Positions 31,691 through 55,969 of a stretch of DNA of 64,000 nucleotides are shown here, piece after piece. Made by a program: the position numbers and the translations under genes. Source of the stretch: an uncultured Verrucomicrobiota bacterium (GTDB lineage: Bacteria > Verrucomicrobiota > Verrucomicrobiia > Limisphaerales > UBA8199); assembly GCA_964653485.1 (NCBI GenBank), contig CAZZFF010000004.1, forward strand, positions 26,069 through 90,068. Direction: 5' to 3'. How positions within the stretch are numbered: the first letter of the stretch is position 1; the number at the start of each line of letters is the position of its first letter. The notes beneath the pieces were generated by a model, which saw only the letters and a list, made by a program, of their open reading frames with translations, ran no database searches and was not told the DNA's origin.

Positions 31691-31696
31691 AGGCTA

Positions 31697-38190: not shown

Positions 38191-38192
38191 GC

Positions 38193-40877: not shown

Positions 40878-40880
40878 AGT

Positions 40881-40961
40881 CAAAAGGCAAAAGGAAGAGG
40901 GCGGAAAGAGGAACGCTGTGCGGTGCTGGTGTCATTTGAGTCTTTAGCATTCATCCTTTCA
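40881..40961. repeat. Heptamer-period tandem repeats in a phage intergenic spacer
   Basis: caaaagg/caaaagg/aagaggg/cggaaag/aggaacg (40881-40915) and tctttag/cattcat/cctttca (40941-40961). Confidence 0.7.
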
Positions 40962-41849
40962 TGGAATCTGCGTCGAGCGCGCCCAGGCAGCCATCTGCTG
41001 CGCCATTGCGGCCTGTTCGCCCTGGAGTTGCGCCTGCCGGGCAATCACCGTCCTCATCAGGCCGACCATTCCATCCACGGTCCTGGAGGCGCCGCTAATC
41101 ACATCCACCGCCTGCTTCAGCGCATTTACGTGTCTGTCCTGCATCTTGCCTATTTCCACCAGCAGCGCCTTGATTGCAGGGTCCACACGGTCCTGAGCGG
41201 ACGACAAGTCCCGGTCCTGTGCCGCCCATGCCTGTCCTGAGCCCGTCGCGGCTTGGACCGTCTGGCTGGAGTCGGCACCGACGGCCGCTCGATTCCGGGT
41301 CCCAAGGGCGCCTGGAGGCACAGCCTGCGTTGCCGCGGCCACCGGGCTTCGAGCCGGCGGCCTGGCCGCTGTGGCCAAGGGAGATTCCCCTGTCGCGCCC
41401 GTCTTTGCCTCGGACGCCGCGAAGTGCGCCGCTGCCAGATCACGCTCAACCGCCCCTGCGCGTCGGTCGGCTCCAGGCAGCCGCCACACGTCCATTCGCC
41501 TTGCCCTGGCATCGCGGGCCGCGATTTCGGGTCCTATCGCCCACTCCTGGGCCGCGTCAGAGGCCGTGTTGCCGGCTGCCGGTGGTTTGCTTTCCGGGTC
41601 CTTTGAGGGCCGCGTGAACTCCTCATGCAAACGTTGACTCCATTGTTCGCACGCCTTTTGCGCGTCCTCGGCCCCCCGAGCCATCCCTTGGAGCGACTCG
41701 GCAATACTTGCGTCACCGGCCGTGCTGTCAAAGACACGCTGCAACCTCCGGGCTGCGTCGCTCGTCTGGTTCAGGGCCGCCGCGGCAAGCTTGCCTCCGG
41801 GTGTGTCGGCCGTCGTCTCGATCCGGACCTCAAGGCTTTGGTTAGGCAT
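40959..41849 (-). CDS. Ala/Gln-rich helical phage protein (possible short tape-measure or internal protein)
   Basis: 296 aa with low-complexity helical ends (QAQLQGEQAAMAQQMAAW), located between the fibre and hub genes. Confidence 0.4.
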   Translation of the reverse strand: MPNQSLEVRIETTADTPGGKLAAAALNQTSDAARRLQRVFDSTAGDASIAESLQGMARGAEDAQKACEQWSQRLHEEFTRPSKDPESKPPAAGNTASDAAQEWAIGPEIAARDARARRMDVWRLPGADRRAGAVERDLAAAHFAASEAKTGATGESPLATAARPPARSPVAAATQAVPPGALGTRNRAAVGADSSQTVQAATGSGQAWAAQDRDLSSAQDRVDPAIKALLVEIGKMQDRHVNALKQAVDVISGASRTVDGMVGLMRTVIARQAQLQGEQAAMAQQMAAWARSTQIP

Positions 41850-41876
41850 ATAAAAAGGAGAGGGCGAGGAGACTCT

Positions 41877-44800
41877 TCATTTGAGGCCGAGGAAGGTGCA
41901 GTTCGTGAATGAATTGCCGTACTGGATGAACGTGAATGCCGCCAGATTTGTCACGCTGAGCGTCCCTTGACTGCTGATGCTCGCAGGGAGAGTGCCAATG
42001 ATTGGCGAGCCGCTGCTATTGGTCACAAGGCAGACGCATGTGTTGACGGCCGAGAGATTGGCATTGATCGGCGCGCTGAAGGTGAAGCCGGCGGACGCAC
42101 TGTAAAGCGTATATGGCTTCTGGAAGTTCGGAATGAGGCTGCCGGCATTAGTCGGCCAATAAAGCGAGTTCGGGTTCAGGTTTGTAAGCCCAGCGCCGCT
42201 GCCAATGTAGTTGGTGCTGGCAATGGTGCCATCCGGCCCCACAATTGTCGTCCCGTTGGTCGCAGCAATTCCGTTGGTAAACACGGGCATGGTCCTGGAC
42301 GCCCAATCAACCAGGATCGTTCCGAGGCCGCCACCATACAGATGTGCCACATCCGCCGCTGAAATCGCTGTGGAGTAGAGTCTGACATCGGCGACCAAAC
42401 AGGTGCTGTACAGGGCATCTGTAATATCGGCGCCGCATACAAATGACCCAAGTTGCGCCGCAGAATCGAGACTCCCGGGAGGACTGCCGGTGTTCACGGT
42501 GACGGTCTGGGCTTGGCCATCCGTGTACATCGCCACCCTCCCCCACCCCGACTGCGTGCCGTCAAACACGAGGGCAAAGTGGTGCCACAAGCCGTCTTTA
42601 GTGTACGGAATGAAGCCGGTTGCACTCCCGCTGTCGCAGATCAGATAAATGGTTGAGCCACCGTCGTAAGTGAGGAAGCGATGACCCGACGCACTGAAAC
42701 CGACGTAAGGGATTTTCCCTCCCGATGAGACGTTGAACCAGAATGCGATCGTCAAACCACTGCCGCCTCCTACCAAACCGGCGACGCTGCCAGAGCACTG
42801 ACCATACTGAGAACTCGTGCCCACCAATTGCAGCGACCTGCCGAGTGCCGCCGGCGCCGAGGATGACCACGCCGGCGCCCCGTAGAGCGCCATCGCATTA
42901 CCGTTGCCAGACTTGTCCAGCGCCGTCGCCCCGCTCCCATCATTGAGGGGCCACCACCCTGCGGGCGCCGGCCATACACCAGCGAATGAAGGCCAGATCA
43001 GCGATTCCCCAAGGCCGCTAAACGCGACACTGGCAAGAGAGTTCGTCGCTGCTTTGACGGCGTTGGTCGCGCCGATGAGCGTCTCGATGGCGCTGCCGTC
43101 CGAGGTGCTCAGGGCGACCGTGCCGCTGGTCGTGACTGCGCCGCCGGAGGTCAATCCGGGCGCGGAGACATTGACGCTCGTCACCGTGCCACCGCCCCCA
43201 CCCCCGCCACTGGATGCAATCACAAGCTGCCCGGAGTTGGTTGTCACCGTCACGTTCGCTCCAGCTTGGATGGGAAGCAGGCCCCCGTTGAGGTTTGAAA
43301 TGCCGACGCCACTCCCGGCCAAACTGCCTACGTAGGACGGAACCTGCCCCGCGACCGACTGCTTGAGGTCAAGATAATAGGTGGTTCCGTTCACCACCGT
43401 AGGTAGTTGCCCAACCACGATTGGCGCCGCGTTGCCCCCGCGCAGCCCGCTAAAGCGGACCAACCCCGTGGATGAGAGCTCCGTGGACAAGTTGAGCAGG
43501 GACGCGATATAAGCATGACCCGCCGCGCTCGGATGCACATTGTCCGCGGATAACATCGTCGCGCTGTTCCAGCCGGCGCTCACGTCCGTGCATTGGGCCG
43601 CCCCGAAAGCCCCCTCGACCCATGAGGCAAACGCCGCCTGGCTCGCGTATGAATCGGGAATGTTCAGCAGATGATGCGTCGGGATCGACGAGGCCAGCAA
43701 ATTGCTCACGATCAGCACGTAGTTCGTCTCGTAGATCGAGGCGTTGACCCCGGAGTTGAGGTCGTTGCGCCCGATGCACAGCACACATCCCGAAGGCCGG
43801 ATGTAGTTCAAGAGATAAGGCATGCACTGCTCCAACTCCACCGTTCGGTCCCCGGGCCCCGCATAATTCACGTAAGGCACGGACGCCGATTGCGCCGCCA
43901 AGGCCGAAAATCGATTCGTTATAGCCGCGTTCCCGACCGCGTAGCCGACGGTTTTTGAATCGCCCAAAAAGGCCACGCAGTTCGTCGGCGTGAAGGTCGT
44001 CACCTTGATGGACCCAATGTCAATCTCACCAACGTTGTTGAAATTCCAGATCGTGAAATTCCCTGCGTTGGGCATCGAGCTATAAACCCCGCCAACCAGC
44101 GCCGCCAGTTGGTCCGTTACCGAGAGGCTATTGCCATACAACGTACTCAGGTTTGTGCAGCTAATGGTGGCCACGTTGCCCCGCTGACTGAACCTCTCCA
44201 GTATTGGCGTGTTCTGCGCTATGTTAAACGGGTTAAGACCCGACGTCACATACAGATTGGGGCTGCTGCCACTCAGCGTCAGGAAATCAAGATGGCCGAC
44301 AGAATCCAGCATGCCGCACATAGACTCAGAGTACCACGGGTTGATCGTCTTCTTGCCGATGTAAGGAAACCCAGGAGACCAACCGCTCGGAGCGGACCTG
44401 TTCGTCGCGATGATCTCGACGTCGTAATTCTCATCCATGTTCGTCAGCCCAACCAGCGACAAGGTCTGGTTGTAATCATTGACCCCCTGCGGGAACACGA
44501 TGTATCCCCCCGCCGCCACGCTTGGCGTAAAGCCGCTGTAGCTGAAATCTGACAGGTCGCTCCAGTTGGTCTTGTAATAGAGCACTCCGACGCTCCCCGT
44601 GGCCGCCGGTAAAAGCAGCGATGGAATGACCAGCGCCGATGCCGAAGCCACAGCCCCCGCGATGCTCAGGGGGTTAATTCCCCCCGGCGCATTCGTCGGA
44701 AAGGTCCCGAGGGGCGCAAACGCCGTCGCCGGCAGCCCGTTCGTCGCGGTCTGCGCCGCGCCGACTGAATCAAAGGCCGAGGCTGCGGAGTAGGCAGCGG

Positions 44801-45617
44801 ACCCCAGCGCGTTGGTCGCTGCTTTCACCGCATTGGTCGCGCCCGTGAGCGTTTCGACGCCGCTGCCGTCCGCGGTGCTCAGGACGACCGTCCCGCTCGT
44901 CGTGACAGCGCCGCCCGAGGTCAGCCCGGGCGCCGAGACATTGACGCTCGTCACCGTCCCGCCTCCTCCTCCGCCCCCCGTCGCCGCGATGGAGAGTTGC
45001 CCGCCGTTTGTCGAGAGGATGATGTTTGCCCCAGCCTGGATGGGCAGAGCGGCTCCGTTGAGATTGGTGTTGCTCGGGAATAGATTGAGCGTTACCCCGG
45101 CCAGGGCGTTGGTCCACAAGAACGTGTTCTGGCCCTCAACCCCGCGCTTTGGAATAGCGGCGGCGTTCACCGCGTTCGTCGTGTATGGGACCGTGATCGT
45201 CCATGCCTGCCCGATCCCCTCGATAACCACTCGGTAATCACCCGGCATCAAGTTGGTTGCCGCCACCCCGCCGACCGGCTGAAGCGTGATCGGCAGGCCG
45301 GCATACAGGGACTCGGAATCCGAGAACAGCGGGTCCAGCGCGGTGACGGTGATGGGGTTATTGAGCACCTGGCCCGTAAAGTTGTAGGTCGAGAAGAGCA
45401 CCGCCGTCTGAGCGGCAGGGGACAGAGGACAGAGCACAGAGCACAGAAGGAGCGAGATTACCAATAACCATTTTTCAATTCTCAATTCCCGATTTCCGGG
45501 TGCGCATGATTGAGAATTGAGCATTGCGAACTTGCAATTGGCAATTCTCAATGGCCCATCCCCGCGACCCGCGTAACTTCCGGTTAAAACCATCCGTGTC
45601 ATCGTCTCAGTTTTCAT
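41877..45617 (-). CDS. Tail fibre/spike-like protein with duplicated fibre module, SGNH esterase domain and LamG-like domain
   Basis: Two copies of the module ...LPIQAGAN...GGGGGGGTVTSVNVSAPGLTSGGAVTTSGTV.LST... are present. SGNH blocks are FLGDSKT / IGRNDL / DNVHPS. The C-terminal LNDGSGATALDKSGNGN...LTIAFWF matches a concanavalin/LamG pattern. The N-terminal ~72 codons are built from DNA repeats, and an alternative GTG start lies at 45401. Confidence 0.65.
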   Translation of the reverse strand: MKTETMTRMVLTGSYAGRGDGPLRIANCKFAMLNSQSCAPGNRELRIEKWLLVISLLLCSVLCPLSPAAQTAVLFSTYNFTGQVLNNPITVTALDPLFSDSESLYAGLPITLQPVGGVAATNLMPGDYRVVIEGIGQAWTITVPYTTNAVNAAAIPKRGVEGQNTFLWTNALAGVTLNLFPSNTNLNGAALPIQAGANIILSTNGGQLSIAATGGGGGGGTVTSVNVSAPGLTSGGAVTTSGTVVLSTADGSGVETLTGATNAVKAATNALGSAAYSAASAFDSVGAAQTATNGLPATAFAPLGTFPTNAPGGINPLSIAGAVASASALVIPSLLLPAATGSVGVLYYKTNWSDLSDFSYSGFTPSVAAGGYIVFPQGVNDYNQTLSLVGLTNMDENYDVEIIATNRSAPSGWSPGFPYIGKKTINPWYSESMCGMLDSVGHLDFLTLSGSSPNLYVTSGLNPFNIAQNTPILERFSQRGNVATISCTNLSTLYGNSLSVTDQLAALVGGVYSSMPNAGNFTIWNFNNVGEIDIGSIKVTTFTPTNCVAFLGDSKTVGYAVGNAAITNRFSALAAQSASVPYVNYAGPGDRTVELEQCMPYLLNYIRPSGCVLCIGRNDLNSGVNASIYETNYVLIVSNLLASSIPTHHLLNIPDSYASQAAFASWVEGAFGAAQCTDVSAGWNSATMLSADNVHPSAAGHAYIASLLNLSTELSSTGLVRFSGLRGGNAAPIVVGQLPTVVNGTTYYLDLKQSVAGQVPSYVGSLAGSGVGISNLNGGLLPIQAGANVTVTTNSGQLVIASSGGGGGGGTVTSVNVSAPGLTSGGAVTTSGTVALSTSDGSAIETLIGATNAVKAATNSLASVAFSGLGESLIWPSFAGVWPAPAGWWPLNDGSGATALDKSGNGNAMALYGAPAWSSSAPAALGRSLQLVGTSSQYGQCSGSVAGLVGGGSGLTIAFWFNVSSGGKIPYVGFSASGHRFLTYDGGSTIYLICDSGSATGFIPYTKDGLWHHFALVFDGTQSGWGRVAMYTDGQAQTVTVNTGSPPGSLDSAAQLGSFVCGADITDALYSTCLVADVRLYSTAISAADVAHLYGGGLGTILVDWASRTMPVFTNGIAATNGTTIVGPDGTIASTNYIGSGAGLTNLNPNSLYWPTNAGSLIPNFQKPYTLYSASAGFTFSAPINANLSAVNTCVCLVTNSSGSPIIGTLPASISSQGTLSVTNLAAFTFIQYGNSFTNCTFLGLK
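43034..43310. repeat. Intragenic direct repeat, copy 2 (fibre module)
   Basis: About 270 bp, roughly four-fifths identical by eye to 44806-45075. It shares the exact run gagacattgacgctcgtcaccgt. Confidence 0.8.
44806..45075. repeat. Intragenic direct repeat, copy 1 (fibre module)
   Basis: Partner of 43034-43310. Confidence 0.8.
45421..45448. repeat. Heptamer tandem repeat
   Basis: gacagag/gacagag/cacagag/cacagaa. On the coding strand it is translated as LLLCSVLCPL. Confidence 0.75.
45476..45554. repeat. GAGAATT-type repeats forming an inverted repeat
   Basis: caattctcaatt (45476-87), attgagaattg (45509-19) and caattctcaat (45542-52). The second and third copies are exact reverse complements of each other. 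Confidence 0.7.
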
Positions 45618-45647
45618 AATTCATGATTCATACTTCGTGATTTCTCC
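45613..45647. repeat. Heptamer tandem repeat at the fibre ORF start
   Basis: ttcataa/ttcatga/ttcatac/ttcgtga/tttctcc. Confidence 0.75.
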
Positions 45648-45654
45648 CCGCCCC

Positions 45655-46062
45655 TTACGCCGGCACGGCACCTTGCACCGTGTAGCGAAACTTCGTGCTG
45701 ACCCCCGTTTGCTCGACGCACGCCACCTCAACAATGACGGCGCTCAAGAAGCTCGCGATCATCGTGCCATCCGGGTCGTTGATCCCCAGGGAGCAATTCA
45801 TCGGCACCGTGGCGGCGTGGCCCCACACAAACCCGTCGGCCGCGGCTTGACTCGCGTGGACCCGCGCAACCGTCCATGAGAAACTGGTCTCCCGGTTGCC
45901 GAGGCCATTTGCGAAGACGCGCGCCGCCAGGGCGAGCTGCTCGGTCTGGATTTGCCGCGCCTCGGCTGGGATTGGCGGAGGGTCAATGATGAAATCTCCC
46001 GCGCCGTCATCGCCCAGGGTGACAGGCGTCGCGCTCGGGATTGGGGTGGCGATTATTTGCAT
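45655..46062 (-). CDS. Hypothetical phage protein
   Basis: 135 aa, co-oriented in the tail module and flanked by repeat-filled spacers. Confidence 0.45.
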   Translation of the reverse strand: MQIIATPIPSATPVTLGDDGAGDFIIDPPPIPAEARQIQTEQLALAARVFANGLGNRETSFSWTVARVHASQAAADGFVWGHAATVPMNCSLGINDPDGTMIASFLSAVIVEVACVEQTGVSTKFRYTVQGAVPA

Positions 46063-46136
46063 GAAAGTATGAAGGATAAAGGATGAAACCGGAGCAGCGC
46101 GGGTGACTTCTTGTTTTAGCCTTTAGTCTTTAGCCT
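46061..46136. repeat. Two heptamer tandem repeat blocks in one spacer
   Basis: atgaaag/tatgaag/gataaag/gatgaaa (46061-46088) and ttttagc/ctttagt/ctttagc/cttgcgc (46114-46141). The blocks are partly complementary to each other. Confidence 0.75.
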
Positions 46137-46345
46137 TGCGCCCGTGCAGGACTGGGCTGCGCGGTTTGTTTAGCTGCCGCGGCTTGCGGCGCTATGGGAG
46201 GCGGCAGCGCCGGCGCGGAGGCGGCATCCTCCGCCTGGCCGCGCGCGATGAGCATGCGGGCAAGGTTCTCGGGCAGGTCGGCCGTTGAGCCGGCGGCGAT
46301 GACCTTGCCGGCATGGGGAAGGGGGTATTTGGCTCTTATGTTCAT
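46130..46345 (-). CDS. Small hypothetical phage protein
   Basis: 71 aa with an Ala/Pro-rich C-terminus, in the position where tail chaperones usually lie. Confidence 0.4.
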   Translation of the reverse strand: MNIRAKYPLPHAGKVIAAGSTADLPENLARMLIARGQAEDAASAPALPPPIAPQAAAAKQTAQPSPARAQG

Positions 46346-46383
46346 GGGAAAGGATAAAGACTAAAGAATAAAGGATTAAAAGG
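46346..46383. repeat. Heptamer tandem repeat
   Basis: ggaaagg/ataaaga/ctaaaga/ataaagg/attaaaa. Confidence 0.75.
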
Positions 46384-46390
46384 GTCAGGG

Positions 46391-47377
46391 TTAGGCGCTG
46401 AAAACCAGGAGCGGTTGCGGGGCGCCGGCGCTGAAGGTCATCGTGGTGACAAAGCCCACTTCGCCCGTCCCGAGCCTGGTCCCGCCGAACTCGAAGCCGG
46501 CGCCGACGGCATCCGCGTTTTTGAGGGTGATTGACTTGCTGTTTGGCCCGGTGAGGACGAGGTCGGCGCCGGTTGTTCCGTTGGCGAATTGCTGGCCGAG
46601 CAACCGGCCGGTATTGACGCCGATGGCGGCGTCGATCTGGCTGTGCGTAGGCCCGTAAGGACGGCACCTCGCCATGAAGGCAACGCTATCGAGCTTGTAG
46701 GCCCGCACGAGAGTCTGCACGGGCAAGGGAGAGTACTTGATGTCGCTCGTGATCACCCATTGGTCCTCCGCTTCCACAGGCAGGCCCGCACTGCCGCCGC
46801 CGAAGCCCGCGACCGTTCCCCACACGCCCGTCCACGCGCCACGCTGGTAGTCAGTGCCGGATTGCTGGCCGCCCGGATCGGAAACCCCGCCGGGGATGAG
46901 CGTGTAGAGTGCTCCGGCCGCCCCGAGCGAGGCGCCGGTCGCCAGAATGCAGGCGATCTCGACAGGCCCGAACAGCGGCTTGTCGATGCCCAGGTGCAGG
47001 TCCGGGTGCTTGGTCACCGCCGCGCGGGGGAAGGAATAGCTGCGTCCGTCCGGGCTCCAGATGACCGCCGGAGTGTCCGCCGCCCCAGCCGGGTTATGAG
47101 GGCGCGTCCCGATCCCCAGCGCGCCGATCGTGCTTCCCACGCTGACCCCCAGGTAACGGGGAAAAACCAGCGGCAGGGCCGACCAGTTATCAAAGGGTGT
47201 CAGGCTGACAATGACCTCCGCATTGGCTTGCAGCGCCGTGACTCGGCCGAAAAACCCGCTCGCCAAATCCACCGCCTGCTGCTTGACCTCCGCCTTGATC
47301 TCCCCGTTCTCTCCCTCCGGCCAAAGAGCGCTGCCGCCCATGTATATTTTGCCCGGTCCCGCGTATATTGTGCTCAT
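46391..47377 (-). CDS. Putative major tail tube protein (double-size)
   Basis: ATG 47377 (MSTIYAGPGKIYMGG...) inside ORF 46391..47821; 328 aa. It has a tube-like beta pattern and lies after the head-tail genes. Inference only. Confidence 0.45.
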   Translation of the reverse strand: MSTIYAGPGKIYMGGSALWPEGENGEIKAEVKQQAVDLASGFFGRVTALQANAEVIVSLTPFDNWSALPLVFPRYLGVSVGSTIGALGIGTRPHNPAGAADTPAVIWSPDGRSYSFPRAAVTKHPDLHLGIDKPLFGPVEIACILATGASLGAAGALYTLIPGGVSDPGGQQSGTDYQRGAWTGVWGTVAGFGGGSAGLPVEAEDQWVITSDIKYSPLPVQTLVRAYKLDSVAFMARCRPYGPTHSQIDAAIGVNTGRLLGQQFANGTTGADLVLTGPNSKSITLKNADAVGAGFEFGGTRLGTGEVGFVTTMTFSAGAPQPLLVFSA

Positions 47378-47406
47378 ATTTTGTTTGGACTTTTTTTTAA
47401 GTGCTC

Positions 47407-48162
47407 TCAGAATTGCTGCCGAACCACCGAACTCCTGAACATGCCCGGCTTGTACGCCGCGTACCGCAACACCGGCCCGGCCGGCTGAAACGGCGCGCTG
47501 TACTTGGTTGCCCGTGGATTGCCAGGCCCCGGAAAACTCCCGTCCCACGTATAAAAGATGTCCGCTCCGATGGTCGCGGACGAAAGGCTCACGCCGGACG
47601 GCTGCGTTTGGGCGGCGGGCTGGCTCACCCGTCCCACAGGTGTGGCGGCCGCCTGCATCTGGAGTTTGATCCGGTAAGCGACCAACCCCGCGAATCGCTG
47701 CGCATCCCAAATGGCATCGCGAAGGGTGCCCTCGCCGACCACGCGCAGGTTCTCCGTCCGCCAGAGCCCGCGGATGGCCTCCCGCACCGCGGACATCACC
47801 CCTGCCCCGCCAATCTCCCACTGGTGGGAGCTGTCCAGGATGAACTTGGAGACCTCCTCCGCGCTCATTTGGGTGCCCGTGGCCGGGGCGTAGTTGAGGT
47901 TCGGCTCTTCCAGCGCCACGCAGGACAACACCAGGTTGCCCACCGGGCCGGACACATTGGGATGCAGGACCTCGAAGGCCGGCATCTCGACGAGGATGCC
48001 GCAGCCGCTCCGGCCGTTCCGAGGAGCTGTATAAACGGTGGACCAGTCAATCTCGCTTTGAAGCCGCAGCTTGCGGTACTGGATAACGTTGATGAATCGC
48101 AGCCCCGGCTCCGCAAGCAGCCCTTGGGTCAAATCCTCCTGTAACTCGACGAAATCGTTCAT
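47407..48162 (-). CDS. Hypothetical phage head-tail joining / neck protein
   Basis: 251 aa, starting 3 nt downstream of the preceding gene. The C-terminal IFYTWDGSFPGPGNP...YSAPF resembles a chitobiase-C-type Ig-like module. Confidence 0.45.
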   Translation of the reverse strand: MNDFVELQEDLTQGLLAEPGLRFINVIQYRKLRLQSEIDWSTVYTAPRNGRSGCGILVEMPAFEVLHPNVSGPVGNLVLSCVALEEPNLNYAPATGTQMSAEEVSKFILDSSHQWEIGGAGVMSAVREAIRGLWRTENLRVVGEGTLRDAIWDAQRFAGLVAYRIKLQMQAAATPVGRVSQPAAQTQPSGVSLSSATIGADIFYTWDGSFPGPGNPRATKYSAPFQPAGPVLRYAAYKPGMFRSSVVRQQF

Positions 48163-48165
48163 GAC

Positions 48166-48690
48166 TCACTCCGGTATTTGTGGATTGGCCCAGGGCGGCA
48201 GGGACTTCTCCGGGACCGGCCACTGAGCCTCCGGCGTCGGCACCGGGTGGGTTCGGTTAAGAAGCTTGTTCTCGCTGTTCCATTGGCCGCTTTTCGGACT
48301 GGGGACGCCGGCCCGGCCAACACCACCCTTCTTTGGCTCGCCGGGCGGCTCAATCGCAATCCGCTGCTGTGCTATCCGGTCGAGCTTGGCCAGCGCCTCG
48401 TCGTGCGCGTCCCGCCGGTCTCGAGTCTGGAGACGCTGCAATTGCGAGAAGGCCGTCAGCCAACGCCACCGCGCCATGGCGACAATTTCAAGATCAAGCT
48501 GGTCGGGCGTCGTCCCATCCGCACCGAGCCGATAGCCTCCCGCCCGGATGGCGCCGCGCACCGCATTGACAACCCGCGCCAAAATCAGCGGCAGCGCATC
48601 GCCCGCTCCCTGGATGCTCTTCAGGGCCGCCTGTTCCTCCACTGTGAACTCTCCCAGCACGTCTTCGACTGTTACAGTCTTCCAAGCCAT
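48166..48690 (-). CDS. Putative head-tail connector/adaptor protein
   Basis: ATG 48690 (MAWKTVTVEDVLGEFTVEEQAALKSIQG...) in ORF 48166..48894. It has a gp6/DUF1320-like N-terminal pattern and fits the position. Confidence 0.4.
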   Translation of the reverse strand: MAWKTVTVEDVLGEFTVEEQAALKSIQGAGDALPLILARVVNAVRGAIRAGGYRLGADGTTPDQLDLEIVAMARWRWLTAFSQLQRLQTRDRRDAHDEALAKLDRIAQQRIAIEPPGEPKKGGVGRAGVPSPKSGQWNSENKLLNRTHPVPTPEAQWPVPEKSLPPWANPQIPE

Positions 48691-48799
48691 AGTCAGTTGA
48701 TGGTGAATGGTTGCACTCCGCGCTCCGCACTCGATTGGCCCCGGCGGCGGCAAACCAGCCAACACCCGCCGCCGGGGTCTGTTCCCCCGCCCCTCGCTA

Positions 48800-49324
48800 C
48801 TATGGGTAGCGAATCGGAATAATCTTTTTGACCACCCAGGCCGAACAGTTGGTGACCAGGCCGTTGCCCGAATTGGTGATCGAGTAGATGCCAAGCCAGT
48901 TCGCGAGGCCGACCACGCGAGCGTCCAGGTTCGTACACCACACCACCTGGTTGGTCCCGCTGGTGGTCAGCGTCAGCGACCATTGCGGCGAGGTCTCCCA
49001 ATCCGTCGTCCGAGGCGGCCTGTCGGTCCCCGCCCGGCACAGGCCGATCGTCAGAGTCTGGTTTGTGCTCGAGGCGCCGGCGCACGAGAACCAGAAGCCC
49101 AACTGCTGATAGCTGGCCGTATTGATTGCCCCGCCAGTGCAGTACCCGATGCCGTTGGTGCCAACGCTGTTCGTAGGCGCCGACACATAACTGACCCCGG
49201 TTGCAACCTGATTGGTGATGTTGAAGCTCTCCGCCCTGGCCGCCGGCAATAATGCCAGCGCAAGGGCGGCAGCGGCGAATCGCAACGCGTTCTTCATGTT
49301 GTTTGCTCTTTGGGTGTTTTCCAT
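48800..49324 (-). CDS. Secreted Cys-rich beta protein encoded between capsid and connector genes
   Basis: A Sec signal MKNALRFAAAALALALLPAARA|ES sits inside MENTQRANN-MKNAL.... The mature part has six Cys. AGGAGG lies upstream of ATG 49324. Confidence 0.5.
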   Translation of the reverse strand: MENTQRANNMKNALRFAAAALALALLPAARAESFNITNQVATGVSYVSAPTNSVGTNGIGYCTGGAINTASYQQLGFWFSCAGASSTNQTLTIGLCRAGTDRPPRTTDWETSPQWSLTLTTSGTNQVVWCTNLDARVVGLANWLGIYSITNSGNGLVTNCSAWVVKKIIPIRYP

Positions 49325-49341
49325 CGGTGATCCTTTTCCTC

Positions 49342-51585
49342 CTACTGGCTTGTAATGCACAGGCCGCCCCGGTTGTCCCCCACCGCGGCTCCGAGCATGA
49401 CCTGGATGCGCCATTCGGCATAACCGCCCGTGTGATTGACATACTGCACCAGCACCACCGAAATCCCGATGTCGGGGTCGGTGATGGTCGTGACGGAGCC
49501 GTAGCTTGCGCCAGGCAGGGCCTGCGTGTAGTCGTTGCTGAGCCGAGTTTTGGCCACGACGGCCGCCTTGTGCAAGACCATCCCCACGAGGTTTGGCGTC
49601 ACGCCCGGCGCGGTCAGGTTCGGCGCCTCGATCGGCTCGAAGCCTGCCAGCTTGGGCAGGCGGTTCTCCGTCACGATCTGCGGCGATTGCTGCCCGGCGA
49701 AGAAAGTCACCAGGCTCGGGTCCGTGGCCAGTTGCTCGAAGTAATTGCTCGTCAAGAGCGCCACCCTGTCGTTGATCGGCACCTCGTTCGGGTTGAAGAT
49801 GGCCGCAATCTTTGTGAGCGTGGAGCGCGCGAAGTCCGCGATGCCGACGGGGTAATTGGCATAAGCCACCGGGACCTTCGCCCCGTTGGTCTGGGCGTAG
49901 GCGTTGTAATTGGCCGGCGTGAAGAGCTTGTATATCTTCTCGACGAAGTACTTGGCCAGGGCATAAGCCGCCGCCGGGGCCTGCTCGTCGAACAACCGGC
50001 GCATCGTGCTGGCCAGCGTGTTCGCGTCGAAGACAATCGGCACGCCCACGTGCTCGTCGAGAGTGATCAGGACGTCCTTGGTCTGCGCGGCGCTGACGGT
50101 GCTCCAGCCCAGCGGGCGGCCGGTTGAATCCGGGGCCGTGTTGTAGCTTTGGACGGCCGGGACCACCACGATGCGCGTGGCTTCAGTCTGCCTGAATTGC
50201 GCCGGGGTGTCGCTGAAGTCGGTGAAAACCCGCGAGATTACCGGGAACGCCAGTTTGAACAACTGCAGCGTCCGCTGGGCCACCAGCGTCCCGCTCAACG
50301 TGCCCAGGTTGGCGTCGCTCACGTCCGCCGCCATGAGCGGCATGTCGCGAAACTCGTTCCACCGCGGCGCGATTTCGCGCGCGTAGAGGGCGCCCATCTG
50401 TTTGGCGTGCTCGCCTTTCTGCTGGAATCCCGCGAACGACAGATCACGGATGCCGGAGTTTTTCGCGACCAGGGCGCCGTAGGCCTGGATGACGCGCGCC
50501 GCTCCTTCCTTGGCTTCGAGCCTGGTTGTGCCGGCGGTCGCCGACGCCTCCCGCGTGATGCTGCCGGCCGCCAGGGCGGCGTTGCCCGGCATGGCCTGCA
50601 ACGTGTCGAGCATCTCCGCGTTATCGGCGCAGAGCCGCATCCACTTGGCCTGGAGCGGTTCATCCTGGGCGGGAATCGCCCCGCGCTTTACCGCGGCGGC
50701 GACCGCCTCCTGTGCGGCGCGCCCGCGCTGCGCCCTGAGCGCGTCGTCCTTGCGCTCGTTGTCCTCCTCGAGCTCCGCGATGCGAATCGCCTGCTCGACG
50801 TTTTTCCGTTCGGCCTGCTTGGCCGTGAGTTGCTGTGCCGCTTCGGCATTGCCCGCCGCATTGGCGGCCCGCAATCCCTGGAGTTCGGTGTCCAGCTTTT
50901 GGAGTTTGGCCGTCAAATCGGCCAGCTTCTCTTTCATGTTGTCCTTTGTTTCGTGGCCGCCCGTCAGGGAGTCCACTGGGTTGTCTGCGTCGCCCGCGCC
51001 GGCGGTTGCCCGCGCGGAAATCGTTCCCGCCCGCTTCGCCCACAAAGGGGCGATGTCGTGAAATGCCGGGTCGTTGACCAGGCTCCCGAAGTTGAGCCCC
51101 GCATCCTCCTTGCACATCACTTTTGCCGGGTCGGTTTGAGTCACGAAGAACACAGGGGAAAAGGCGCGGTAATTCCGGCCCTTGATCGCGTCGGCCCCGG
51201 CCTGGCTCATCTCCGCCCGGCAATAGACCCCGGGCGCCGGCGAATCGCGCCACACGAAAGCCAGCGGCCAGGCGCTGGCCGCCTCGTCCTTGTGATCGAA
51301 ATCGAAAAAGGCCCGCTGCTGCCCCCGCGCATTCACCGCCTCCAACTGCGCCTCCAGCGCCGCCGCCGCCGCCCGGTCCACTTCCACCGTCCGCCGCACC
51401 GGCTTGTCCCCCTGCATAAACCAGCACCGATGCACCCCGCCCGGCATCACCATGAACTCGGCGATGCTGCCGGCGTTCATATCTTGAGCGCCGCTCGGCG
51501 CGGCGACGGCCACGCGGGCCGCCAGGGGCAAGGCTGAAGGCTGAAGGCTAAAGGATGAATCAAGATGTTCGCATTTGTCGCTCAT
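49342..51585 (-). CDS. Fusion of Mu gpI-type prohead protease, coiled-coil scaffold and major capsid protein
   Basis: The N-terminal FMVMPGG...FFDFDHKDEAASAWPLAFVWRDSPAPGVYCRAEMSQAGADAIKGRNYRAFSPVF matches the Mu-like prophage I protein. The central part is a coiled coil (KEKLADLTAKLQKLDTELQGL...). The C-terminal ~330 aa are capsid-like. An alternative start is ATG 51480. Confidence 0.7.
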   Translation of the reverse strand: MSDKCEHLDSSFSLQPSALPLAARVAVAAPSGAQDMNAGSIAEFMVMPGGVHRCWFMQGDKPVRRTVEVDRAAAAALEAQLEAVNARGQQRAFFDFDHKDEAASAWPLAFVWRDSPAPGVYCRAEMSQAGADAIKGRNYRAFSPVFFVTQTDPAKVMCKEDAGLNFGSLVNDPAFHDIAPLWAKRAGTISARATAGAGDADNPVDSLTGGHETKDNMKEKLADLTAKLQKLDTELQGLRAANAAGNAEAAQQLTAKQAERKNVEQAIRIAELEEDNERKDDALRAQRGRAAQEAVAAAVKRGAIPAQDEPLQAKWMRLCADNAEMLDTLQAMPGNAALAAGSITREASATAGTTRLEAKEGAARVIQAYGALVAKNSGIRDLSFAGFQQKGEHAKQMGALYAREIAPRWNEFRDMPLMAADVSDANLGTLSGTLVAQRTLQLFKLAFPVISRVFTDFSDTPAQFRQTEATRIVVVPAVQSYNTAPDSTGRPLGWSTVSAAQTKDVLITLDEHVGVPIVFDANTLASTMRRLFDEQAPAAAYALAKYFVEKIYKLFTPANYNAYAQTNGAKVPVAYANYPVGIADFARSTLTKIAAIFNPNEVPINDRVALLTSNYFEQLATDPSLVTFFAGQQSPQIVTENRLPKLAGFEPIEAPNLTAPGVTPNLVGMVLHKAAVVAKTRLSNDYTQALPGASYGSVTTITDPDIGISVVLVQYVNHTGGYAEWRIQVMLGAAVGDNRGGLCITSQ
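51530..51564. repeat. Heptamer tandem repeat
   Basis: aaggctg/aaggctg/aaggcta/aaggatg/aatcaag. Confidence 0.8.
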
Positions 51586-51597
51586 TGGTTTTTCCTT

Positions 51598-53361
51598 TCA
51601 GTCAGGAGGAGTATTAGGATTAGGATTGAGAGCGGGAGGCAGGGTGGAATGCCGTGATGGGAGTCCCTCCGCGGCCTTCCCGTTTGCGTCCGCATCCTCA
51701 CCCGCGTTCGACGATGGGTTCTGGGCTGTGGACTGTGGACTCTGGGCTGTGGACTCCTTTTCCCCCCCGACGGTTTCCTCTCCGGGTTGCGGCAGCGGTA
51801 TCCCATGACGCCTGTAAAACCAGGACCTCGGCATGGGCACCCCGGCCGCCAGAAGGGTCGAGTCTCGTTGCGCGTTGGCCAGAGTGTCCTGCTCCTTCCT
51901 GGGCACGGGCCGAAACTCGGGCGCCTCGCTGTCCTGCCCGTAATTCAGGAGCAGGATGCTTCGGACCAGTTGGGCATTGAGCACGCTCGCGGCGAAATTC
52001 GCGGCGGCCTGGACAACCTCCGCTTTGACGTCGGCATGCACCTGCCCCAGCGCCCGGCTGCCCCCGTGTTTGGACACGTCTCCCGTTAAGGTCTGCCCCA
52101 GGATGAGCAGGTCCATCTGCTTCTCCGCCCGGTCGAGCATGTCGCCCTGGGGTGAATGGTCCCCCATCTGGGCGGCTTCTTTCAATTCGAGCGTCGTGCC
52201 GGCCGGGAACGCGGCCCAGGCGTTGCTGCCCATCCGCTCGAGCATCGAGCAGATGGCGTCGACCGTCTCCTGCGGGGCGGCCGGGTCATAATTCACCCAT
52301 CGAAACGGAAGCCCGAAGACCTGTCCCAGGTTCAACAGCCAATCGGCGGAAAAATTCGCCGCGCACCACCACCATGCCAACGGCCTCAGCAATGCGCCCC
52401 CGAGCGCGGTCCCGCTCTTGGCCTTGCAAATCGAGATGAGGAACTTGTGGTCGGGAAACCTCCGCACGGAGTCGGGCAACGGTTGCGAGCTTGTGCTTTG
52501 CCACACCCCCGGGTTGAGTTTGCATCCTCCCCCGGCGCCGCGGGTTCCAGCGCCGTTCCTCCCCTGTCCCAGTTCCGCCCTCAACCCCAAGCACCCGTCC
52601 AGGGTCCAGGTATAACAAGTGGGATGCACCCAGTACGTCGCCCGCGGGGCCACAATGTCCCCAAGCTCGCCGGCGGGTCTCACCTCCCAATCCACCTCGA
52701 GGACGGTCTGGCCCTTGCCCCAGGCGTCGAGCACGTCGTAGATCGTTCCGCTCAAGCCGTTCTCGTCCTCAGCCGGCGCCGGCCTCATCCGCCTGAACGC
52801 GCTGCTCACCATTCTCGCCTTGTCTTTGGCGGAGTTGCTCGGCGGTTGGTCCTCCTCCTGCCAGGGCGCCAGAGCCCAGTCCATGGCCATCACCGCGCGC
52901 TTCAACTCGTTCAAGTTCTTGGCCAGCCGCGGCGACGTATCCTCCATCAGGTCGAACAACTCCCAGGCCTGAACGTGACTGCCCGCCAACGCCCCGCGCA
53001 GCACCATCTCGATGTATTGGGGCGTAATCGCCGCCAACTGCGGCAGCAGCCAGCGATAGGCCGCCTGCGGCCGCAGGACCTTCGCGAGACTCCGGCTCAA
53101 CCCATCCGGCAGCGTCGAGCTTCCACCTTGCCCGTCCGCCTCAACGGGACCCCGGCCCGGCCTCATGCCCAACCTGGCCGCCGCCAAACTCACCCCGGCC
53201 GGCGCCCGCCTCCGCCATTCCGGCACCTCGGTCTCCCGGAGTCCGGACCCCGCCCGCCCAAACCGCCCCGCCGCCGGCCCGCCTTCCGCGCGGCGGCCAG
53301 GCCCCGCGCCTCCCAGTTCCATGTTGTGTAGCATTGCATTCACCTGGAACTGTTTTCGCAC
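51598..53361 (-). CDS. Phage portal protein, Mu gp29-like (DUF935)
   Basis: AITPQYIEMVLRGALAGSHVQAWELFDLMEDTSPRLAKNLNELKRAVMAMDWALAPW matches the DUF935 N-terminal signature. An alternative start is ATG 53166. The C-terminal tail is encoded by tandem DNA repeats. Confidence 0.75.
   Translation of the reverse strand: MRKQFQVNAMLHNMELGGAGPGRRAEGGPAAGRFGRAGSGLRETEVPEWRRRAPAGVSLAAARLGMRPGRGPVEADGQGGSSTLPDGLSRSLAKVLRPQAAYRWLLPQLAAITPQYIEMVLRGALAGSHVQAWELFDLMEDTSPRLAKNLNELKRAVMAMDWALAPWQEEDQPPSNSAKDKARMVSSAFRRMRPAPAEDENGLSGTIYDVLDAWGKGQTVLEVDWEVRPAGELGDIVAPRATYWVHPTCYTWTLDGCLGLRAELGQGRNGAGTRGAGGGCKLNPGVWQSTSSQPLPDSVRRFPDHKFLISICKAKSGTALGGALLRPLAWWWCAANFSADWLLNLGQVFGLPFRWVNYDPAAPQETVDAICSMLERMGSNAWAAFPAGTTLELKEAAQMGDHSPQGDMLDRAEKQMDLLILGQTLTGDVSKHGGSRALGQVHADVKAEVVQAAANFAASVLNAQLVRSILLLNYGQDSEAPEFRPVPRKEQDTLANAQRDSTLLAAGVPMPRSWFYRRHGIPLPQPGEETVGGEKESTAQSPQSTAQNPSSNAGEDADANGKAAEGLPSRHSTLPPALNPNPNTPPD
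51611..51757. repeat. Tandem repeats inside the portal 3' end
   Basis: attagg/attagg/attgag (6-bp period, 51613-51630, encoding NPNPN) and ctgggct/gtggact/gtggact/ctgggct/gtggact (7-bp period, 51721-51755, encoding STAQSPQSTAQ). Confidence 0.75.
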
Positions 53362-53385
53362 ACTTCCCCCCGGCCGCCAAACACT

Positions 53386-53413
53386 CCATTGGCTCCATTG
53401 GCTCTATTGGCTG
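53386..53413. repeat. 9-bp tandem repeat upstream of the portal gene
   Basis: ccattggct/ccattggct/ctattggct. Confidence 0.8.
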
Positions 53414-53706
53414 TTTCTTCACTTTAAAGAGGAGATTCTGTAGGATTAGGAGTCTGACGGGTTGGTCGAGTGCCGGCCGGACCGGTTTGCCATCCCCAAC
53501 TAGTTCCAAAAGAGCGGGTGAATGAGCGAGCGATGAACTCTGTAATGGACTGCCGAGGCGATTGAACGAAGCGGAACGGGAGTCGCTTCAGGGGCTCTGA
53601 AACGGCGGTTGGGCTTTAACGGCGGGCATTAACCCGATGAACACCCTCAGCGAAACCAAATCCAAGGCGATGCAGCAACGGCAATCTCATGTGGCAGCTC
53701 CGAGCA

Positions 53707-54879
53707 TCAGGCCATCGAAGCACCTTCATCCTCTTCAGCATCGTTAAGGAGATACTCCTCCGCGGCGCCTGTTTCTTCGCTATAGTTAAACTCCACCTTG
53801 GACTGCTTCACGATCTCGTCCAAAATCGCTGGGAGGTGATGTTGCCTCACAGCAGCCTGAAAGCACTCTCGCAGCCTGGGTACGTTTATAATCTCCTCGA
53901 TGCATGCCATGTAGGATCGCACGATGGCATCAATGCCGTAGAGGGCTTTGGCCCCCTGCGCAAGCCGCCCGCGCAACTCTTCTTCTCCGTCCTCAGACTT
54001 GATAACGAACGAAACGGGAAGTCGCTCCAACTTGTCTATGTCCAAAAAGTACTTTCTTACGTCAAGCGTTTCGGTCACCTGGAAGAATCTTCCGAGCGGC
54101 TTCATCACGAAGTCAATGCCGCCATCATTGGCGTTGGTCCGTCCCGTCTTGAAGAGCTTCAACTGCTCCTTCCTTAGGTCCGCCCGGGTGAAGCCGAAAT
54201 AGACGAACTGGTCGTGATAGAAGTACTTCAAGATGGCGAAGCTCACGATCTCGAAGAGGCGCGCGTCAACGTTCGGCGCCAGCAAACCAAGGATGTATGC
54301 CTGGACGGCATCCGGTGAAGCGCGCACTGCCTCCTTCAGTTTGGTGCATGCTTGAATGAAAGTGTCGAATGAGTTTCGCTTCGCGGCAACGTACGCGTCG
54401 ATAACGCCGATCACCGCCTCTGCCACGTTATACGTCTTCTTCCCCACCTTGACGCGCAAGAGGTTTGAGTTAATCCAATAGCGGTTGGTCTCCGGGTCCC
54501 GCAAGATGGGAACATATTGGCAGGACGGGAAGAACTTCTTGAACTCTTCGTTCATCCTGTGGTTGAGGCCGTGATTTTGCAGCTTTGCGCCGAATGGTAG
54601 CTGGCGTTGCCGCTTGAGAAGGGAACTGAAGACCGCCCCACCGTACTTCGAATAGTCGCCCTTCTTGTGAAATCCTTTTGCGACGTAGTCCTCGACGAGC
54701 ACGTAGATCGCGTACAGGTTGGCGAAACTCCCACGGGATTTCGATCCACGATTTGCCGCCTTGGTCTTGTGGTTGATGTATTGCAGCAGAGTTCCCTTTT
54801 CGAGGATATCCTCCTCCGCCCCGGCAAAGTGGCGGACCAGGACCCCTCGAATGGTCTCAGTGAACGCGTGCTCGATCAT
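53707..54879 (-). CDS. Putative type II restriction endonuclease
   Basis: ~390 aa immediately downstream of, and overlapping, the methyltransferase gene. NANDGGIDFVMKP resembles PD-(D/E)xK/Mrr-like catalytic cores. Sequence composition is lower-GC. Confidence 0.55.
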   Translation of the reverse strand: MIEHAFTETIRGVLVRHFAGAEEDILEKGTLLQYINHKTKAANRGSKSRGSFANLYAIYVLVEDYVAKGFHKKGDYSKYGGAVFSSLLKRQRQLPFGAKLQNHGLNHRMNEEFKKFFPSCQYVPILRDPETNRYWINSNLLRVKVGKKTYNVAEAVIGVIDAYVAAKRNSFDTFIQACTKLKEAVRASPDAVQAYILGLLAPNVDARLFEIVSFAILKYFYHDQFVYFGFTRADLRKEQLKLFKTGRTNANDGGIDFVMKPLGRFFQVTETLDVRKYFLDIDKLERLPVSFVIKSEDGEEELRGRLAQGAKALYGIDAIVRSYMACIEEIINVPRLRECFQAAVRQHHLPAILDEIVKQSKVEFNYSEETGAAEEYLLNDAEEDEGASMA

Positions 54880-55747
54880 ACAAGGCAAGGGGCAAGGTCG
54901 AATCGAGCTCGTTTCTCCTAATCCCATTCTTGCGGAGGTAAGTCTTGTTCGGTCTCTCGATCGGTTTGCCATTGAAGTGAGTCTGGATGCCCAACCGCCG
55001 CAAGCCGATCTTCACATAGGGCTCCTCTCTGTCGATGCCCACGGATCTCCGCCCAAGTTTCTGAGCCACATAGCTCGTCGTAAAGGTGCCAGAGAACGGG
55101 TCAAGCACTAAGTCTCCAGGGTTTGAACTCGCCTTCAAAACACGCTCAAGCAGCGCCACCGGTTTCTGAGTCGGGTGCTCCTCGTATTCCTCCATCCGGT
55201 ATCGGACTCGCGGGATCTCCCAGACGTTTCCCGGCACCTTTTCGCTGCTGTAAACACTTGGAACTGGCTTCCGGTAGTCAATGAGCCTCCGCTGGGACCC
55301 GGTCTTCGCGTCAACCAGGATGTCTTTCGCGTTAAACGTGTAGCACTCCGGATCCTTGACGCAGAACAAGATTGGCTCGTAGAGCGACCCGAAGTACCGC
55401 TTTGCCTGCACCCCGGAACTGTCGTAAAACCACACAATCCGAGACATGATCGTCAGTCGCGACCTGACGTGAATATCGAAGAACGGCATGCACTGCGTGG
55501 ATGCCATGAGGTAAAAACTCCCAGTCGGCTTAAGTTTCTGCACGCACAGGTCAATCCAAACGCGGCACCAGTCCAAGTACTCCTCCTCACTTGGCCACTT
55601 GTCCTTGTGCCCGTGAAAATCCTTGCCGATATTGTAAGGCGGGTCGGCGAAAACGAGGCTAACACTGCAGTCTGCAACATGCGAACGCAACGCCTCCAGC
55701 GCATCACCCCAAACCACCTTGTGGTCGGCGTTCTCAAAAACCGTCAT
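54857..55747 (-). CDS. DNA methyltransferase, beta-class N6A/N4C (N6_N4_Mtase family)
   Basis: Motif IV FADPPYN precedes motif I VLDPFSGTFTT, with EHPTQKP between them. Confidence 0.85.
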   Translation of the reverse strand: MTVFENADHKVVWGDALEALRSHVADCSVSLVFADPPYNIGKDFHGHKDKWPSEEEYLDWCRVWIDLCVQKLKPTGSFYLMASTQCMPFFDIHVRSRLTIMSRIVWFYDSSGVQAKRYFGSLYEPILFCVKDPECYTFNAKDILVDAKTGSQRRLIDYRKPVPSVYSSEKVPGNVWEIPRVRYRMEEYEEHPTQKPVALLERVLKASSNPGDLVLDPFSGTFTTSYVAQKLGRRSVGIDREEPYVKIGLRRLGIQTHFNGKPIERPNKTYLRKNGIRRNELDSTLPLALYDRARVH

Positions 55748-55969
55748 GAGATCATCGTGCCACCGTCGGCACCTGAGTCAAGCCCGGAAGAAGCACCACG
55801 GAAGGAACGACGCCCCCCACATGTCGCGAGCAGCCCGGCCTTAATCGCGTCCGGGGCACACGTAAGGTCGTGGTGACCCCGCGCCGCGCACAGGTCACTC
55901 GTCCGGCGCCGGCGAACGGGCGCCACACCAACGAGCATATCTATCAGCGAACTATAAGGCCGGTTCAGT

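Follow-up and report, generated by a model that had tools for sequence, protein, structure and literature searches.

Heptanucleotide tandem repeats at the gene boundaries of a Mu-like structural gene cluster in a Limisphaerales bacterium

Results

A 64,000-nt stretch of contig CAZZFF010000004.1 (assembly GCA_964653485.1) from the metagenome-assembled genome of an uncultured soil Verrucomicrobiota bacterium of the Limisphaerales, here called the window, contains between positions 40881 and 53413 a family of short tandem arrays with a 7-nt period, which lie at the boundaries of phage-derived structural genes. The arrays are real and statistically solid. They are of the heptanucleotide long simple sequence repeat (LSSR) kind, which was found to be common in Limisphaerales, in a subset of their Mu-like phages and in soil Acidobacteriota. 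On balance it is probable that they are generated by slippage and tolerated in spacers and protein linkers, where they may tune intercistronic mRNA.

Tandem arrays were identified with Tandem Repeats Finder (TRF) and, independently, by a criterion of our own that required at least 12 of 14 matches at lag 7. For TRF, chance expectation was taken from 40 shuffles that kept the 50-bp local composition, and period-7 arrays of at least 2.5 copies were counted with the TRF settings unchanged. TRF detected eight such arrays between 40881 and 53413, as against a shuffle mean of 0.125 (maximum 1), and 11 in the entire window, as against 0.75 (maximum 3). The lag-7 criterion yielded seven arrays where 0.48 were expected; by the same type of criterion, periods of 5, 8 and 10-12 nt were not enriched. 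An excess of matches at lags 7, 14 and 21 (z = 3.2, 2.2 and 3.3) was also observed in the intergenic DNA of the whole window, and TRF additionally reported one 6-mer and one 9-mer array in the region 40881-53413. The window arrays comprise three to five imperfect copies, with 74-97% identity to their own consensus (Table 1). For 12 blocks the median distance to the nearest gene end was 14 nt, and nine of these lay within 26 nt of a gene end, for which a randomly placed block has a probability of 0.10 (binomial P = 1.6e-7).

An earlier, sequence-only reading of this DNA had proposed a family of period-7 repeats, each block with its own unit, at the boundaries of phage structural genes. Both detection methods, the position bias and the shuffles bear out the family itself. 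Most of the ten blocks listed in that reading were recovered, but caaaagg (40882-40916) and atgaaag (46061-46088) are degenerate and remained under the TRF score threshold; an array that had been missed, at 48713-48732, was found by TRF. Several units do exist, but they are not all unrelated, most being variants of AAAGG[AC]T / AAGGCT[GA] when read on the plus strand. The peptides that had been quoted for the ends of the portal, protease and fibre are correct.

The region 45380-46375 with six blocks (45420, 45509, 45613, 46061, 46115 and 46349) was base-for-base the same in seven further contigs, which come from independent assemblies of other samples (JGI, ENA, Logan); the arrays are therefore not assembly artefacts. 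Chance, local composition or faulty assembly might be suspected on account of the two weak blocks among the ten, but this explanation is refuted by the comparison with the shuffles and by the independent assemblies, and its probability is negligible.

The window belongs to a JGI metagenome contig of 139.5 kb. The genome has a G+C content of 63%, and the capsid, PlsX and tricorn protease have NCBI proteins at 90% identity or above that are named 'Limisphaerales bacterium' (Verrucomicrobiota). The minus-strand genes from about 36 to 55 kb form a Mu-like head/tail gene cluster with portal, protease-capsid, tail and fibre genes. Its members include a Mu-type portal (PF06074, E = 1.5e-69), a Mu gpI-like protease fused to the major head protein (PF10123; PHROGs 328, 267 and 283) and a fibre of 1,215 aa with GDSL-lipase and LamG domains, so that the label 'phage module' given to the region in the sequence-only reading is apt.

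The arrays extend beyond the phage region and are a property of the host lineage as well. Perfect (GAAATCC)n arrays occurred in two host spacers of the window (8046-8070 and 31596-31621), and 682 kb of Limisphaerales-like metagenome DNA, chosen by PlsX at 70-90% identity, contained 32 arrays where 3.8 were expected, with GAAATCC/GAAACCC units recurring. As an outgroup sample, 1.54 Mb of loci from a tricorn-protease scan, which returned mostly Acidobacteriota, were investigated; these contained 67 arrays, as against 5.8 expected. Fifty-four of the 67 Acidobacteriota period-7 arrays were non-coding, though the non-coding fraction is about 21%, while only 4 of 37 period-6 arrays were non-coding. 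An inverted partner was present within 300 nt of 30 of the 67 arrays, compared with 3 of 67 in the control, and such pairs could form hairpins. Forty IMG/VR viral contigs with a related capsid showed 44 arrays (2.8 expected), concentrated in about nine contigs, and many of the arrays started at, or included, the upstream stop codon. Some arrays in relatives were far longer than those of the window, namely (GTGAAAC)x17 in L006 (3113-3232), (CCACGAG)x11 in L130 (12310-12387) and (TGACCAC)x9 in L129 (14956-15021). Units also recurred in unrelated loci and even in different phyla, examples being AAATCCG, AAAGCAG and ACCACTG, the last in four independent loci. ACCACTG/TGACCAC units were shared by viral contig L129 and, among the Acidobacteriota loci, by L029, L039 and L061. 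Single-linkage clustering of the units at no more than one mismatch placed nearly all of them in one group and was uninformative.

The phage-derived clusters were a hot spot within this general pattern. Array density per kb was 0.26 in the window cluster and 0.43 and 0.62 in the orthologous clusters of contigs L136 and L137, whose capsids are 90% and 87% identical to that of the window, as against 0.047 in the Limisphaerales-like background. Per kb, this amounts to a 5-13-fold excess of arrays over the host background (Poisson P = 5e-13 for the three clusters taken together). Heptamer arrays were present in nearly every spacer of the orthologous clusters, with units that differed between orthologues, and two junctions carrying arrays in both L136 and L137 were short and array-free in the window. 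Arrays that were homologous between the window and L137 differed in copy number, with 2.9 versus 4.5 units at one junction and 3 versus 4 at another. The spacer between the capsid gene and the next gene reads AAAGGATCA in the window, (AAGGATG)x4 in L137 and x5 in contig L138, which gives the appearance of growth from a local seed. At the junction of the 71-aa and 135-aa genes, the loop was conserved between the window and L137, while both arms consisted of different, mutually complementary heptamer arrays.

Copy-number change, which had been suggested for these repeats, was observed in steps of 7 nt in a host array and in the orthologous clusters, but not in the phage arrays of the window. Alignment of 8,016 nt of the window with contig L003 revealed three single-nucleotide polymorphisms (SNPs) and a sole indel of one ATTTCGG unit, the host array at 31596-31621 having one unit fewer in L003. 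L137 and L138, homologous over about 5.8 kb with 68 SNPs, likewise differed by a sole indel, one AAGGATG unit. Both length-polymorphic arrays are intergenic. The window's phage arrays showed no indels in the seven contigs (45380-46420 and neighbouring sequence), a test that is weak because each of these contigs is only 0-5 SNPs away from the window.

Arrays inside open reading frames (ORFs) behave as in-frame, low-complexity, disordered linkers or tails. In the alignment of the protease-capsid proteins of the window, L136 and L137, a conserved start MSxKCEH precedes a variable N-terminal linker, and a different in-frame heptamer array encodes this linker in each of the three orthologues. L136 (10001-10300) and L137 (3183-3450) both have an N-terminal stretch of about 45 aa that is rich in Cys and His (NEDGTFKGGFDGCVLHM..CEGHSEESAK.ICGAIA); it is missing from the window protein (51480-51585), in which a heptamer array lies at the deletion point. 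The portal tail array at 51722-51755 is preserved in L137 as the peptide ESTVHSPQSTVQ. Frame-switching at ORF ends, as envisaged in the sequence-only reading, did not find support in this window: the arrays are short, with imperfect copies, no variation was seen across the seven near-identical contigs, and those within ORFs behave as in-frame linkers.

Gene callers were misled by the arrays, giving different starts for the fibre and the portal (45469-45617 and 53100-53361). For identical fibre DNA, the called start lay 38, 62, 131 or 254 nt past the upstream stop, depending on the caller. The arrays carry ATG and stop triplets in several frames.

Two hairpins had been predicted between complementary blocks of the phage region. 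The pairing of 46061-46088 with 46114-46141 was left out of the minimum-energy fold (z = +0.84), and the duplex of its arms reached only -7.3 kcal/mol, so that this hairpin is rejected for the window. For 45509-45519 and 45542-45552, alternative hairpins are possible (fold z = -1.39), but 45509-45519 pairs better with 45476-45490. Significantly stable heptamer-arm hairpins were predicted for L136 (z = -4.0), for L137 (z = -2.9) and, in the window, for the host spacer 31585-31700 (z = -2.81). The hairpin at the 71-aa/135-aa junction is strong in L137, with an arm duplex of -27.6 kcal/mol (z = -2.9), decayed in the window and absent in L136. The leader 46335-46400 was unstructured as RNA (-0.2 kcal/mol; 186 of 200 shuffles folded at least as well), and the A+T content of the arrays was 52-61%, compared with about 46% in other spacers.

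The organism appears not to use Shine-Dalgarno sequences, as no sign of them was seen among the 54 genes of the window: GGAG or GAGG was present at -20 to -4 in six genes, which equals the background of random 17-mers (11.8%). Several leaders of the phage cluster are CU-rich and akin to the anti-Shine-Dalgarno sequence, not to its complement. No strand bias of the arrays relative to transcription was detected. Sense versus antisense counts for purine bias and for units supplying stop codons in all three frames were 27 versus 15 and 17 versus 9, neither difference being clear. In L137 and the viral contigs L096 and L104 the AAGG[AC]T unit family is read in the sense direction, in the window in the antisense direction. 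The absence of a strand preference speaks for an origin at the DNA level and against a sequence-specific RNA signal. Rfam 15 covariance models gave no match at E <= 1 in 30000-58000. Terminator-like sites numbered 15 in 38000-56000, as against 17.0 expected, and none coincided with an array; promoter-like sites were not enriched, and none was predicted at an array.

Table 1. Tandem arrays of the window and extents of the phage-derived clusters (positions in the window, or in the named contig)
Feature	Position	Strand	Detection	Location and remarks
Degenerate heptamer leader, mRNA sense ...CCTCTTTCCGCCCTCTTCCTTTTGCCTTTTGACT-ATG	40882-40916	-	lag-7 match 0.64, below TRF threshold	two perfect CCTTTTG units and decayed ones; ends 5 nt ahead of the start of the 894-aa gene
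(CTCTGTS) x4 in fibre ORF	45420-45447	-	TRF 45422-45447, 3.7 copies, 94% matches	encodes LLLCSVLCPL, the hydrophobic core of the signal-peptide-like fibre N-terminus (...LLVISLLLCSVLCPLSPAAQ)
Three AATTGAG / CTCAATT-type blocks, both orientations	45476-45552	-	TRF 45509-45530, 3.1 copies	surround the fibre start codon (45524); block homologous in L137
(GTATGAA / TCATGAA), about 4 units	45613-45642	-	TRF 45613-45636/42, 3.4 copies	begins 13 nt past the stop codon of the 135-aa gene; L137 orthologue has one unit more
Degenerate pyrimidine-rich leader GTTTCAT CCTTTAT CCTTCAT ACTTTC-ATG	46061-46088	-	lag-7 match 0.62	continues into the start codon of the 135-aa gene; forms the 3' arm of the decayed inverted pair
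(GGCTAAA / GACTAAA) x3.3	46115-46137	-	TRF, 87% matches	includes the TAA stop of the 71-aa gene; 5' arm of the decayed inverted pair; viral contigs L096 and L104 carry this unit family in sense orientation
(CCTTTAT / TCTTTAG ...) x4	46349-46376	-	TRF 46349-46373, 3.6 copies	most of the 45-nt spacer ahead of the 71-aa gene
(GAGTGCG / GAGCGCG) x2.9	48713-48732	-	TRF	23 nt upstream of the 174-aa gene, beside a GC-rich hairpin; homologous L137 array of about 4.5 units
(TTCAGCC / TTTAGCC) x4.3 in protease-capsid ORF	51530-51559	-	TRF	encodes the N-terminal linker SSFSLQPSALP (protease N-terminus MSDKCEHLDSSFSLQPSALPL)
Hexamer (AATCCT) x3	51610-51627	-	TRF 51613-51627	NPNPN at the extreme portal C-terminus; C-tail reads ...ESTAQSPQSTAQNPSS...LNPNPNTPPD*
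(AGTCCAC / AGCCCAG) x4.9 in portal ORF	51722-51755	-	TRF	C-terminal tail (ESTAQSPQSTAQ)
Nonamer (AGCCAATGG) x3.2	53384-53412	-	TRF, 95% matches	in non-coding DNA upstream of the portal gene; 23 nt separate it from 53361, the start of the longest possible portal ORF
Host array (CGAAATC) x3.6, perfect	8046-8070	.		divergent spacer between an extracytoplasmic function (ECF) sigma factor gene and a GH127 gene
Host inverted pair of GAAATCC arrays	31596-31690	-		ccsA-NIPSNAP spacer; long predicted hairpin; 3' arm 31596-31621
Phage-derived cluster, window	about 36300-55750			
Phage-derived cluster, L136	8488-22421			
Phage-derived cluster, L137	1231-15615			
Phage-derived cluster, L138	8265-12748			

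No terminase or transposase was recognised in the phage-derived cluster. A 390-aa ORF upstream of the portal gene (53707-54879) was considered as a terminase and rejected, as it had no family match; it also showed no similarity to the ORF preceding the portal in viral contig L095. No tRNA or tmRNA was found in the window as an integration marker. Host genes for a 4HBT thioesterase and an epimerase also adjoin the orthologous clusters, the ORFs of which are intact. The cluster may be a defective or domesticated element, possibly gene transfer agent-like. The fibre ORF (41877-45524, minus strand) contains an internally duplicated module of about 85 aa (...GGGGGGGTVTSVNVSAPGLTSGGAVTTSGTV...ETL.GATNAVKAATN...), and signal-peptide-like N-termini, which are unusual for virion proteins, were observed on the fibre and on the protein encoded at 48800-49297.

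Two further repeats were found in host spacers. A nested palindromic element (13668-13908) lies in the spacer on which the tricorn protease and SppA genes converge, with outer arms of 64 nt (13673-13736 / 13845-13908) that are 92% complementary, an inner pair (13747-13771 / 13808-13832) and three CTCAACCCCAACGGGGTTGTG-type units. The element resembles a repetitive extragenic palindromic (REP)/bacterial interspersed mosaic element (BIME) or a miniature inverted-repeat transposable element (MITE). In the spacer 18431-18530, 2.8 copies of the 9-nt unit GGAGAGAAC are followed by an inverted partner of the GTTTCCTC type, and the predicted fold was no better than that of shuffles (z about 0). The tricorn protease itself (10229-13588) had its best matches among GTDB species genomes in Acidobacteriota (72-77% identity), although the contig is from Limisphaerales; horizontal transfer could account for this, as could a bias of the pattern-based scan.

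Discussion

The results show that the arrays exist, exceed chance, lie preferentially at gene ends and gain or lose single 7-nt units. The 7-nt steps, the apparent growth from a seed and the intergenic bias fit replication slippage, and we infer that slippage causes the changes. Arrays would arise from short local seeds and be remodelled one 7-nt unit at a time, and they would persist where a change in length is tolerated, that is, in intercistronic spacers and in disordered protein linkers and tails; this tolerance would account for their position at gene boundaries. Within proteins, in-frame versions alone would survive. In the phage-derived cluster, the spacers consist largely of arrays, and these are rapidly replaced. 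Any effect on expression would probably be generic rather than sequence-specific, with the arrays determining how long and how A+T-rich the intercistronic mRNA is and how it folds, in an organism that apparently does without Shine-Dalgarno sequences. Single arrays could provide unstructured leaders beside start codons, inverted pairs could form long hairpins able to stabilise or insulate cistrons, and gain or loss of a unit might retune the expression of individual structural genes.

Several points weigh against this account. Slippage and tolerance alone are insufficient for the high array density of the phage clusters, which may be due to selection or to something specific to phage replication. 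The recurrence of a limited set of units across unrelated loci and phyla is not obviously expected from random seeds. Replacement of both arms around the conserved loop at the 71-aa/135-aa junction needs selection for pairing or a templated mechanism. The window's phage arrays showed no copy-number change in the seven near-identical contigs, although that comparison had low power, and the role in translation or mRNA stability is a part of the account that we infer. Both the phage-cluster hot spots and the exchange of complementary arms around a conserved loop would be explained if the arrays were a selected, modular intercistronic control of Mu-like phages and phage-derived particle clusters in Verrucomicrobiota that do not use Shine-Dalgarno sequences. 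Each junction would then be either an unstructured leader or a 'slippery' hairpin with tandem-repeat arms, and gain or loss of units or replacement of arms would retune the stoichiometry of virion proteins in very short evolutionary time. We consider such selected control rather unlikely.

It is doubtful, though quite conceivable, that the arrays are neutral mutational debris of a 7-nt slippage bias, found at gene ends since changes elsewhere would be lethal, and that they have no role in expression. Such debris would agree with the different units at orthologous junctions, with the junctions that are array-free, with the absence of a strand bias, with a unit family that occurs in both sense and antisense orientation and with a hairpin that is strong, decayed or absent at one and the same junction. 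It agrees less well with the phage-cluster density, the excess of inverted partners, the swapped complementary arms and the identical units that recur across loci. The inverted partners, which are frequent, might instead point to the inverted pair as the functional unit, an intrinsic terminator or REP-like mRNA stabiliser that ends or protects transcripts between cistrons. Stable heptamer-arm hairpins in the host spacer, L137 and L136 and the many arrays that begin at or right past a stop codon would suit that function; however, the hairpins of the window's phage region are weak or absent, no U-tract accompanies the hairpins, terminator-like sites were not in excess and over half of the arrays are single, so that a function of this type is unlikely.

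The position of several arrays next to start codons also led us to consider tandem sites for a putative RNA-binding protein, with about 7 nt per monomer, that would control translation of the adjacent cistron, as has been proposed for the TAACTGA repeats of Beggiatoaceae. Candidates would be ribosomal protein S1, a Csr-like regulator, or cold-shock or OB-fold (oligonucleotide/oligosaccharide-binding) proteins; S1, Csp and Csr have been reviewed in this role, with the remark that each CspB protein binds one heptamer (PMC4679880). Four cluster leaders are CU-rich (CCUUUAU-like), Shine-Dalgarno use is apparently absent and a limited unit vocabulary recurs, but the diversity of units is very high, their orientation relative to transcription is not conserved, and arrays also occur past stop codons, within ORFs and in hairpin arms. 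Protein-binding sites of this kind thus seem quite improbable. A role in phase variation was not supported. According to this idea, which came from the sequence-only reading, the arrays would be contingency loci that switch phage or fibre expression by copy-number frameshifts or altered promoter spacing. The period is indeed not divisible by 3, arrays do lie in the ends of the fibre, portal and protease ORFs, and two perfect arrays, one of the host and one of an orthologous cluster, are polymorphic by a single unit. The window arrays, in contrast, have three to five imperfect copies and are invariant in the seven near-identical contigs, the polymorphic arrays are intergenic, those within ORFs are kept as peptides or replaced in frame, and promoter-like sites are not enriched; contingency loci are therefore very improbable here.

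These findings extend heptanucleotide simple sequence repeats (SSRs) to Verrucomicrobiota (Limisphaerales), to soil Acidobacteriota and to their Mu-like phages, and they provide an example of a phage structural gene cluster in which heptamer arrays form a strong local hot spot. At orthologous junctions, replacement of arrays outpaces the divergence of the flanking proteins. Two questions become testable, namely why a unit of 7 nt is favoured and whether arrays tune translation where Shine-Dalgarno sequences are not used. The arrays might also serve as strain-typing markers for uncultured soil Verrucomicrobiota. If they were merely mutational debris, their value would be modest and descriptive.

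That many prokaryotes have an excess of heptanucleotide SSRs has been reported before (Mrazek et al. 2007, as summarised in PMC4679880 and PMC4692102), and according to these summaries heptanucleotide units are the most abundant class of long SSRs in most genomes surveyed, with polymerase slippage as the proposed cause. As described there, heptanucleotide LSSRs are tandem 7-nt units beyond composition, mostly intergenic, since 7 cannot be divided by 3, and change by whole units. The present arrays likewise showed an excess over composition, a non-coding bias of units that are not multiples of 3 and whole-unit polymorphism (the host array and L137/L138). They differ in that many units lie within a few kb, as a local hot spot in a phage gene cluster. 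Arrays that abut start codons or overlap stop codons, and inverted pairs, have also been described (PMC4679880, PMC4692102).

Among the closest known systems are the TAACTGA repeats of marine Beggiatoaceae and of some Cyanobacteria and Bacteroidetes, of which two to six units lie directly upstream of starts, often where there is no Shine-Dalgarno sequence; some overlap the stop of the upstream ORF, and strains differ by 7-nt indels (PMC4679880). One unit dominates there, mostly with the same orientation to the downstream gene, whereas many units and no orientation rule were found here, and no TAACTGA doublet was present in the window or in any fetched locus. The Xanthomonas GGGAATC and Nostoc GGGGA(T/C)T repeats are likewise intergenic, vary extensively in length and sequence among close relatives and include some inverted pairs that could form stem-loops (PMC4692102). 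The host unit GGATTTC/GAAATCC looks similar to these; they are, however, G-rich and capable of forming G-quadruplexes, while the present arrays are A+T-rich relative to the genome and have no G-runs. GGGAATC doublets were not found in the window.

The comparison with the short tandemly repeated repetitive (STRR) sequences of cyanobacteria, made in the sequence-only reading, is apt in kind, as both are heptanucleotide SSRs dispersed as tandem units in intergenic DNA, with several unit types per genome. The defining STRR units are CCCCAGT, TTGGTCA and CAACAGT, and doublets of these were absent from the window in any rotation and on either strand; the STRR hosts are heterocystous cyanobacteria and not Limisphaerales. 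In the promoter repeats of Haemophilus influenzae hmw1A and hmw2A, which make expression phase-variable, the unit is also 7 bp long and lies close to the 5' end of a gene of surface or adhesin type. Those tracts are long, perfect and hypervariable in populations, unlike the window arrays, which are short, imperfect and invariant in eight contigs. REP/BIME palindromes, and the start-associated sequences and stoperators of mycobacteriophages, are short junction repeats of operons or phage genomes with known or presumed effects on mRNA stability, translation or transcription. They are copies of one conserved sequence, whereas the present repeats are tandem arrays with site-specific units. Full-text literature searches found no description of such arrays for Verrucomicrobiota, phage modules or Acidobacteria, in agreement with the novelty claimed earlier for this lineage and for phage modules, but the class of heptanucleotide SSRs is not new. 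The arrays thus belong to a known class of slippage-prone heptanucleotide repeats, to which the Limisphaerales lineage and the hot spot in a phage gene cluster are the new additions.

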